Shown: piece by piece, positions 7,017-53,969 of the stretch | Position numbering within the stretch: the first letter of the stretch is position 1 | How the letters are laid out: each line of letters starts with the position of its first letter | NCBI RefSeq assembly: GCF_056712565.1 | Contig: NZ_CM160072.1 | Strand: one strand, 5' to 3' | DNA length: 64,000 bases | Notes under the pieces: generated by a model | What the model was told of the DNA's origin: nothing | What the model saw: only the letters and a program-made list of their open reading frames with translations | Database searches by the model: none | Made by a program: the position numbers and the translations under genes

Positions 7017-8345
7017 TCAGCTTATGGGAACTTCAATCTGGGCCCGGGCAACCACAACCTCATTTTTTATCACATAGCATTCTACCATGTGATCTCCGCG
7101 GAAGTCGGTAGTTTCTTTCTTCGTACAGTAGCCGCCGTCCGAAACGATTTGTCCCCGGATCATATTTCTTCTGCGTGCTTCGTCACCCACGTTCAGTACC
7201 TTCCACATAACGGTGTAGGGTTCCTCTGCCTCCATTTCTGTCAAGTCTGCCCGGAAAAGGAGAGATTTTCGAGCGGAGAGGCGGAATCTTCTGATAAGCA
7301 TCTCCCTCAGGCTTCTGGGAGGGAAACCATCCTGGGTTACGGTACAGTCAAGGTTGAGTGAGTACCTGATATCCACCGGATATTTATCCTCTATAAACTC
7401 TTCGGTATCGGTCCAGGGAACAGCATCTGCCGCATGCGATTCCAGACCAAGACGGGCTTCCATAATACCCACTTTACGTCTGGGGAAGGCTCGTCCGAAC
7501 ACTTTGCGCCAGCGGTCATTTTCACTGGCAGCCCCCTCAGCGTCTAAGGCATCACAACATAATTCATACGCGTGTTTCGCTGCCCGGCCAAACCAGGGAG
7601 ATTTAACACGTACATGCTGATTACTGCCTAACGCGAGATACCTTTCCTTTCTCTCCTCATTTGACAGATATTCAAAAAAGTCTCTGGCGAGGGCTCCCAG
7701 GCTGCCATTTCCGGTATTGTCATAATCTGATGTTGATGAAAGAAAGCGATACGCTAGTGTGTCTATCAGTAAGCCACCCATATTGACGCCATGCAGGTTC
7801 TTCCAGGCTCTGATCATTTTACACAGCTTGCGCAGATTATTGGATTTATCTCGCGAAAATGCGGTCATGGCCGCCTTTTCGTGAAGAGGTTTTGTAATGC
7901 GCCATGCTCCTCCATTATAGCTTTCAGGGAATTTAAAGCTGTCATCATCCTGTCTGAATACAGGTTGAACCTCGACATAAAAGTTTTTAAAGATGATCTG
8001 AACAACCAGTCTGTCCTTTTTCACAGTCTGGTCAGGATATTCTTCCGCCAGAATGTTTCTGACATCTGTAAGCAATGCAGACTGACCATTATCCTTACGG
8101 TTATAATATTCATACTGATTGGGGGGCATAATATAAAGCATATCCAGATCGGATATGCCTTTTATTGCGGTATGTCTGCCTACTGACCCCACTTTCAAGC
8201 GGTTTGCTACCCGGGAACTCGTTCCTCTGAACGCAAGATTTAATGACTTGGTTATTTTTCGATAGTGATAGCTGATCTTTTTTGCCTGTTTGAGGTCAAG
8301 ATTCAAATTTTCAAGAAATTCGCTGAACAATTCCCTGTGGCTCAT
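7017..8345 (-). CDS. SMODS/CD-NTase-like nucleotidyltransferase with about 120-aa C-terminal extension
   Basis: Pol-beta-type NTase signature GSVGRHTAIKGISDLD (GS-x10-[S]DhD) and downstream acidic strand YVEVQP; 442 aa. Confidence 0.55.
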   Translation of the reverse strand: MSHRELFSEFLENLNLDLKQAKKISYHYRKITKSLNLAFRGTSSRVANRLKVGSVGRHTAIKGISDLDMLYIMPPNQYEYYNRKDNGQSALLTDVRNILAEEYPDQTVKKDRLVVQIIFKNFYVEVQPVFRQDDDSFKFPESYNGGAWRITKPLHEKAAMTAFSRDKSNNLRKLCKMIRAWKNLHGVNMGGLLIDTLAYRFLSSTSDYDNTGNGSLGALARDFFEYLSNEERKERYLALGSNQHVRVKSPWFGRAAKHAYELCCDALDAEGAASENDRWRKVFGRAFPRRKVGIMEARLGLESHAADAVPWTDTEEFIEDKYPVDIRYSLNLDCTVTQDGFPPRSLREMLIRRFRLSARKSLLFRADLTEMEAEEPYTVMWKVLNVGDEARRRNMIRGQIVSDGGYCTKKETTDFRGDHMVECYVIKNEVVVARAQIEVPIS

Positions 8346-24161: not shown

Positions 24162-24237
24162 TGGTGCCCGGACTCGGAATCGAACCAAGGACACGGGGAT
24201 TTTCAATCCCCTGCTCTACCGACTGAGCTATCCGGGC
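24162..24237 (-). tRNA. pheU: tRNA-Phe (GAA)
   Basis: Reverse complement reads GCCCGGATAGCTCAGTCGGTAGAGCAGGGGATTGAAAATCCCCGTGTCCTTGGTTCGATTCCGAGTCCGGGCACCA. Confidence 0.95.
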
Positions 24238-37997: not shown

Positions 37998-38104
37998 GCA
38001 ATAACGGTACGACAGCTGTGTCGTGCCGTTTGTTTTTTCTGCGATAGTTACATAGGTAATAGTTGAAATTCCCCTGCCACCTGGCAAAATATCCGTTCAA
38101 CCAT

Positions 38105-38157
38105 CAGCTTTGCAGGACGACCTGCAAACGCGTCTTTTCACCGGGGACGGCCCCAAT
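38105..38157 (+). promoter_or_regulatory. Guanidine-II (mini-ykkC) riboswitch-like tandem hairpins in sugE 5' leader
   Basis: Two stem-loops each with ACGR loop: TTGCAGG-ACGA-CCTGCAA and GGGG-ACGG-CCCC, just upstream of the SMR guanidinium exporter gene. Confidence 0.6.
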
Positions 38158-38172
38158 TTTCCGGAGCCTGAT

Positions 38173-38490
38173 ATGTCCTGGATTATCTTAGTTATTGCTG
38201 GTCTGCTGGAAGTGGTATGGGCCGTTGGCCTGAAATATACTCACGGCTTTAGTCGTTTGACGCCAAGTGTTATTACCGTGACGGCGATGATTGTCAGTCT
38301 GGCGCTACTTGCCTGGGCGATGAAATCGTTACCAGTAGGGACGGCTTATGCCGTGTGGACGGGTATTGGCGCAGTCGGCGCGGCCATCACCGGCATTGTG
38401 CTGCTCGGTGAGTCCGCTAACCCGATGCGCCTGGCGAGTCTGGCGTTAATCGTATTGGGGATTATTGGTCTGAAACTCAGCACTCATTAA
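38173..38490 (+). CDS. sugE: SMR-family guanidinium exporter SugE/Gdx
   Basis: [26 protein letters not shown].. 105 aa. Confidence 0.9.
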
Positions 38491-53670: not shown

Positions 53671-53746
<76 letters not shown>

Positions 53747-53782
53747 AAATTTGAAAAGTGCTGTAAAGCACAGACCACCCAA

Positions 53783-53858
<76 letters not shown>

Positions 53859-53893
53859 AAATTTGAAAGTGCTGTAAAGCACAGACCACCCAA

Positions 53894-53969
<76 letters not shown>

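Follow-up and report, generated by a model that had tools for sequence, protein, structure and literature searches.

Two short hairpins with ACGA and ACGG tetraloops precede the gdx (sugE) gene in the stretch of E. coli DNA analysed here, which is 64,000 nucleotides long and will be hereafter referred to as the window. This locus raises the question of whether the two hairpins form a guanidine-II (mini-ykkC) riboswitch and, if so, which pairings would close the ribosome binding site (RBS) when guanidinium is missing. We conclude that the element is almost certainly a guanidine-II (mini-ykkC, RF01068) riboswitch of the E. coli gdx/sugE mRNA that works as a translational ON switch. The feature is real and has long been described: it is one of the reference guanidine-II examples and has already been characterised structurally, biophysically and in vivo. 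Nothing counts against the identification; the details of the mechanism are less secure. The leader and its surroundings can be described as composed of the following features.

38003 to 38040, plus strand: intrinsic terminator of ecnB, with a 12-bp stem (hairpin 38003-38030) followed by a T-run, from a terminator scan
38063 to 38090, plus strand: putative sigma-70 promoter of gdx, TTGAAA, 16-nt spacer and TG-extended CAAAAT, by consensus match only
38109 to 38128, plus strand: P1 hairpin of the guanidine-II aptamer, 8-bp stem UUUGCAGG/CCUGCAAA, ACGA tetraloop at 38117-38120
38129 to 38142, plus strand: linker L1/2, pyrimidine-rich, 14 nt (CGCGUCUUUUCACC; CGCGTCTTTTCACC), with a G/C polymorphism at 38132
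38143 to 38154, plus strand: P2 hairpin of the aptamer, GGGG-ACGG-CCCC, 4-bp stem, ACGG tetraloop at 38147-38150
38155 to 38175, plus strand: expression platform, consisting of the spacer AAUUUUCC / AATTTTCC, the Shine-Dalgarno sequence (SD) GGAG at 38163-38166, a 6-nt spacer and the ATG at 38173-38175
38173 to 38490, plus strand: gdx (sugE) coding sequence, the regulated gene, for a 105-aa guanidinium exporter of the SMR family, by NF008512 and RefSeq annotation

Membership in the guanidine-II class

The guanidine-II class is defined by two G-C pairs that close each tetraloop, by 16 conserved nucleotides and by a linker of 7-40 nt (PMC5558903). In the gdx leader there are two stem-enclosed ACGR tetraloops, both with the conserved GG-ACGR-CC core, which is GGACGACC at 38115-38122 and GGACGGCC at 38145-38152. 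They are separated by a linker of 14 nt, and the element lies in the 5' leader, adjoining the RBS of a SugE/Gdx equivalog. The tandem hairpins claimed in the initial annotation are present in the sequence, with small corrections. P2 is as it was described there, while P1, read from the sequence as TTTGCAGG-ACGA-CCTGCAAA, has one pair more than had been counted, and the interval 38105-38157 given for the element is slightly too wide. The RF01068 (Guanidine-II) covariance model aligned to 38109-38155 over its full length (model positions 1-48) with 49.3 bits against a gathering score of 32. The E-value was 9.5e-7 for the whole window and 4.6e-9 in a local scan. This Rfam scan, which had been proposed as a check, bears out the assignment to mini-ykkC above the curated threshold.

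A permissive local scan found no competing Rfam family on the leader, on either strand, and the models of guanidine-I, guanidine-III and guanidine-IV gave no score on it, even at E <= 1. These three classes, guanidine-I (ykkC), guanidine-III (ykkC-III) and guanidine-IV (mepA), bind the same ligand as guanidine-II and regulate like genes, namely Gdx-type SMR exporters and guanidine carboxylases (PMC5558903, PMC12186494). However, their folds are unrelated to that of guanidine-II; guanidine-I and guanidine-IV control transcription, and guanidine-III folds as a pseudoknot. A match to Rfam RT-17 at 38070-38131 (16.9 bits, gathering score 40.4, E = 0.98) was rejected as a chance match.

Single hairpins with an ACGR loop and a stem of at least 4 bp are about as frequent in the window (17, both strands) as in shuffled sequences (16.2). 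Tandem pairs with a spacer of 7-40 nt occur once, and that pair is the one in the gdx leader. In dinucleotide shuffles, such pairs arose with a mean of 0.045 per window, with any pair in 7 of 200 shuffles, and chance hairpins of at least 8 bp numbered 0.3 per window.

The gdx gene and its transcription unit

Over 521 bases surrounding the element, the window has the same sequence as E. coli ATCC 11775 (100% identity), and of 5426 complete E. coli genomes, 5424 have the locus. The gene order on the E. coli chromosome is epmB-efp-ecnA-ecnB-sugE/gdx-blc-ampC. The product of gdx scored 192 bits with NF008512, the SugE/Gdx equivalog model (cut-off 126), over residues 1-104 of 105; on the same protein the models of drug-exporting SMR proteins all stayed far under their cut-offs. 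The gene that the hairpins were said to precede is indeed that of an SMR guanidinium exporter. From the end of P2 there are 8 nt to the SD and 18 nt to the ATG of gdx.

The gene is annotated as gdx, 'guanidinium exporter', in MG1655, and it is named 'quaternary ammonium compound efflux SMR transporter SugE' by PGAP. No riboswitch or regulatory feature is marked at the element in the six RefSeq E. coli chromosome records inspected (six of six, K-12 MG1655 included). The practical value of the present assignment is therefore one of annotation, both for the unmarked riboswitch and for a PGAP gene name other than guanidinium exporter.

Upstream, the gdx transcription unit is delimited at its 5' end by the strong terminator of ecnB, a gene identified by NF007487. 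From the consensus promoter, transcription would begin roughly at 38097-38100, some 10 nt upstream of P1. The promoter call is weak on its own, since one site was found where 0.6 were expected; the promoter region is nearly invariant among the E. coli alleles compared. Downstream, gdx (plus strand) and blc (minus strand) are convergent, and their stop codons overlap by 4 bases (TTAA) at 38487-38490. The window also contains three tandem tRNA-Gly(GCC) genes at 53671-53969 on the plus strand, with equal Rfam scores of 69.1 bits and identical aligned sequences, and one tRNA-Phe(GAA) gene at 24162-24237 on the minus strand. These fit glyVXY and pheU of E. coli, respectively.

Pairing of the leader with and without guanidinium

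Guanidine-II riboswitches are regarded as translational ON switches, in which each ACGR loop takes up one guanidinium, base pairs form between the C and G of the two loops, and the RBS is kept free (PMC5558903, PMC12186494). For the E. coli sequence, guanidinium binding in the loops and the association of the two loops come from published work. The oligonucleotide UUUGCAGGACGACCUG(BrC)AAA of PDB entry 5NDI, the sequence of which is given in PMC5486947, was crystallised with guanidine; comparison with that paper shows that it has the sequence of window positions 38109-38128. By NMR and SAXS, the E. coli aptamer, as a 49-nt RNA that retains the natural linker, forms new G-C pairs when the ligand is added (PMC9300104), and smFRET combined with simulation revealed an intrastrand kissing state of the E. 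coli aptamer (PMC9094411). Schamber et al. also reported poor ligand binding by the isolated P2 loop with its wild-type ACGG sequence, and the formation of intermolecular P1-P1' dimers in vitro (PMC9300104). Because of these two observations, the intramolecular P1-P2 complex is less clear-cut in E. coli than in representatives with two ACGA loops.

The riboswitch of K-12 gdx has the same locus and architecture as that of the window, with identical P1 and P2, and it differs by C instead of G at 38132 and by C instead of T at 38159, both outside of the hairpins. A guanidinium reporter fusion, the other check proposed in the initial annotation, has been published for this allele: a K-12 gdx leader-lacZ fusion is induced by guanidinium, with half-maximal induction at 3.8 mM (PMC11423145). 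The primers of that study map to window positions 38071-38088 and 38145-38166 with a single mismatch, which is at a natural SNP, and the inducible fragment corresponds to 38071-38166. Guanidinium also induces gdx-dependent resistance, and the Cs+-resistant mutant ZX-1 carries a 20-bp deletion that makes gdx constitutive and raises its mRNA (PMC13064478), as measured by RNA-seq with n = 1. This deletion maps to window positions 38141-38160 and covers P2. Activation by guanidinium in vivo is published for the K-12 allele, which is two SNPs away from the window allele. Given the RF01068 match and the published induction, neither a missing Rfam match nor a lack of guanidine-dependent regulation, the two outcomes first named as contrary evidence, applies to the element.

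The motif, the family, the binding, the loop-loop contact and the induction rest on data obtained here or published, and the exact pairing of the OFF state is one that we infer from folding. P1 is predicted to be stable, with pair probabilities of 0.88-1.0. P2 without ligand is predicted to be marginally stable, with pair probabilities of 0.01-0.21, the upper value being reached in a 101-nt context. For minimal inducible fragments that end at or just past the SD, the probability of P2 is 0.01-0.12, and that of an unpaired GG in the SD is at most 0.04. Without guanidinium, the strong P1 would form, and alternative pairings would outcompete the weak 4-bp P2 and also occupy the GG of the SD, so that little Gdx would be made. 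As guanidinium rises, one cation would enter each ACGR loop, the C and the G of both loops would pair mutually in a kissing-loop complex, and P2 would be locked. The SD would then be released, the exporter translated and guanidinium pumped out.

The predicted ligand-free folds of the two alleles differ in detail. In the window allele, P2 is split: segment 38132-38137 pairs with 38143-38148, and segment 38149-38154, which comprises the GG of the loop and the CCCC, pairs with 38163-38168, which includes the SD. In the K-12 allele, segment 38141-38147 pairs with 38158-38164. For the GG of the SD, the predicted partner is accordingly 38153-38154 in the window allele; in the K-12 allele it is 38141-38142. 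Both predicted folds exclude P2, and both are abolished by the published derepressing deletion.

A different repressor of the same riboswitch has been drawn in published cartoons (PMC9300104, PMC9094411), in which the central pyrimidine-rich linker serves as the anti-SD and is pulled off the SD by the kissing loop. The CUCU of the K-12 linker can pair with GGAG by three Watson-Crick pairs and one G-U pair, and distant examples of the class, such as locus L103, have an anti-SD of the CUCC type in the linker. However, the best duplex between the central linker alone and the SD region is weak, at -3.5 kcal/mol, compared with -15.0 kcal/mol for the P2 region. The window allele, which has G and not C at 38132, loses one of these pairs, and in the ensembles of the minimal fragment the central linker contributes at most about 0.1 of the pairing of the SD. 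Furthermore, the ZX-1 deletion spares both the central linker and the SD, yet gdx is constitutive, which is more easily explained by a repressing partner in the deleted P2 region. We therefore consider a linker anti-SD possible but doubtful.

Read again in the light of the folding, the P2 deletion described in the literature and the minimal inducible fragment favour a competitor helix that overlaps P2 over one formed by the central linker. A similar competitor helix was suggested for Gloeobacter violaceus by Huang et al. (PMC5486947). We hold the P2-overlapping helix at roughly even odds, because the predicted costs of opening the RBS are nearly equal, a long helix is dispensable and the RNA-seq had n = 1. 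The costs were obtained from a 113-nt transcript model for the wild type, the aptamer-locked form and the deletion variants. With this longer 3' flank, in which the SD can also pair with the coding sequence, RBS opening requires 8.2 kcal/mol in the free form, 7.5-7.8 kcal/mol in the aptamer-locked form and 7.0-7.3 kcal/mol in the deletion variants. Since these values differ by at most 1.2 kcal/mol, equilibrium folding with that 3' boundary leaves the switch unexplained, and it was not relied on. The long helix 38144-38154:38163-38179, in which the 5' strand and loop of P2 pair with the SD and the start codon, was ruled out as a requirement, since the lacZ reporter fragment known to be inducible stops at 38166.

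It is very unlikely that P1 and the U-rich linker act mainly as an intrinsic terminator or attenuator, with transcriptional and not translational control. The terminator scan does flag 38109-38128 plus CGCGTCTTTT, in the MFE fold P1 grows to 10 bp, including one bulge, and GUCUUUUC comes immediately after it (span 38107-38139), and the gdx mRNA is raised in the ZX-1 mutant. However, the U-tract is short and interrupted and is not kept in distant guanidine-II examples, and the ligand-bound ON state needs P1, so that a P1 terminator would oppose induction. The ZX-1 deletion spares P1 and the U-tract, yet expression rises, and the class is taken to be translational on comparative grounds (PMC5558903, PMC12186494). 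Segment 38107-38139 could nevertheless be an extra site of transcriptional pausing or weak attenuation.

That the hairpins arose as inverted repeats by chance, or belong to a coding sequence extended to TTG 38110 inside P1, to which the gdx frame is open upstream (a 126-aa ORF in the ORF list), can practically be dismissed: the chance frequency of tandem pairs and the E-value of the Rfam match given above stand against the former, and against the latter the alignment to the SugE model begins at residue 1 of the 105-aa protein, which starts at ATG 38173 with GGAG 6 nt upstream, the start found in all RefSeq records inspected. As the family model and all annotations start at this ATG, the extension 38110-38172 is very probably not translated.

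Variation among E. coli leaders and relatives elsewhere

Five E. coli alleles were compared, and they do not differ in P1, P2, the SD or the start region. Only two positions between P1 and the start codon are substituted, 38132 in the linker (G/C) and 38159 in the spacer that precedes the SD (T/C). Farther upstream, around 38049-38053, there are a few additional substitutions. The haplotypes seen at 38132/38159 are G/T (the window, ATCC 11775 type), G/C and C/C (K-12). The haplotype of the window is the minority one: with the 86-nt leader as query, about 974 of the 5407 matching genomes were at least 99% identical, and 4433 were at 95-99%. Six genomes matched partially and 19 of 5426 did not match, which puts disrupted or unmatched leaders at about 25 of 5426 genomes at most, as an upper bound for alleles that have lost P2. 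The two SNPs are predicted to alter which of the folds that disrupt P2 and sequester the SD is preferred.

A natural deletion of 29 nt was found in E. coli strain 167, a urine isolate (NZ_CM132950.1, locus L004, at about 2536). It corresponds to window positions 38130-38158, takes away the linker and all of P2, and joins P1 to CUCCGGAG-ATG. Rfam gives no guanidine-II match at this locus, as the deletion abolishes it. The allele resembles the 20-bp laboratory deletion of ZX-1, in which gdx is constitutive. It is conceivable, though improbable, that the variation of the leader is functional, with the SNPs switching the ligand-free fold and rare deletions of the linker and P2, such as that of strain 167, making gdx constitutive. 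If so, E. coli lineages would differ in the basal and induced export of guanidinium and biocides.

A guanidine-II leader also precedes the sugE(p) gene of blaCMY-2 plasmids, which is of Citrobacter freundii origin and lies in a sugE-blc-ampC type order. It is 77% identical to the window over a region of 431 bases and scores 47.2 bits with RF01068. P1, P2 and the segment from the SD to the ATG are those of the window; both hairpins are identical across the sampled E. coli alleles and this plasmid copy. The plasmid copy differs in a linker that is 1 nt shorter and of other sequence, in a spacer with CUGGAG in place of CCGGAG, and in its location on conjugative plasmids. Its linker is also pyrimidine-rich, unlike that of the distant examples. 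The region was matched by 696 plasmid records, mostly of Escherichia, Salmonella and Klebsiella, and in the IncI plasmid NZ_CP027535.1 (locus L126) the riboswitch is at 1549-1593, in a blaCMY-2-blc-sugE cassette. A riboswitch on this cassette has reportedly already been described by Slipski et al.

Genome contigs were scanned with the pattern GGACGACC-N{10,40}-GGACGRCC, which is too permissive in GC-rich genomes for the result to be read as a survey. Among the matches listed, at least 124 in number, 7 have two real stems, 5 reach the Rfam threshold and 2 lie directly upstream of a Gdx homolog. In the five distant examples among these matches that pass Rfam, the stems differ from those of E. 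coli and stay paired, and the GG-ACGR-CC cores are fixed. In a loop-anchored comparison of eight sequences, three enterobacterial and five distant, the outer positions of P1 and P2 vary between AU, GC, CG, UA and GU and are still paired. Since the sample is small and the distant sequences were selected beforehand by their loop pattern, this covariation agrees with the assignment but does not amount to an independent test of it, and the enterobacterial copies, being identical, are uninformative in this respect.

Two observations were made in other assemblies. In a metagenome-assembled genome (MAG) of the betaproteobacterium Janthinobacterium sp. (locus L014), the Rfam family 5_ureB_sRNA (RF02514) matched 7262-7547 with 133.5 bits; as this sRNA is antisense to urease, the match probably reflects the conserved urease gene and not a real sRNA. 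In a MAG of Afipia sp. (locus L063), a guanidine-II match of 37.4 bits lies at 714-761, and the nearest Gdx homolog, at 1724-2035, is about 960 nt downstream, so that another gene is probably the direct target. A third GGGACGGUC-like motif is found there about 20 nt past P2.
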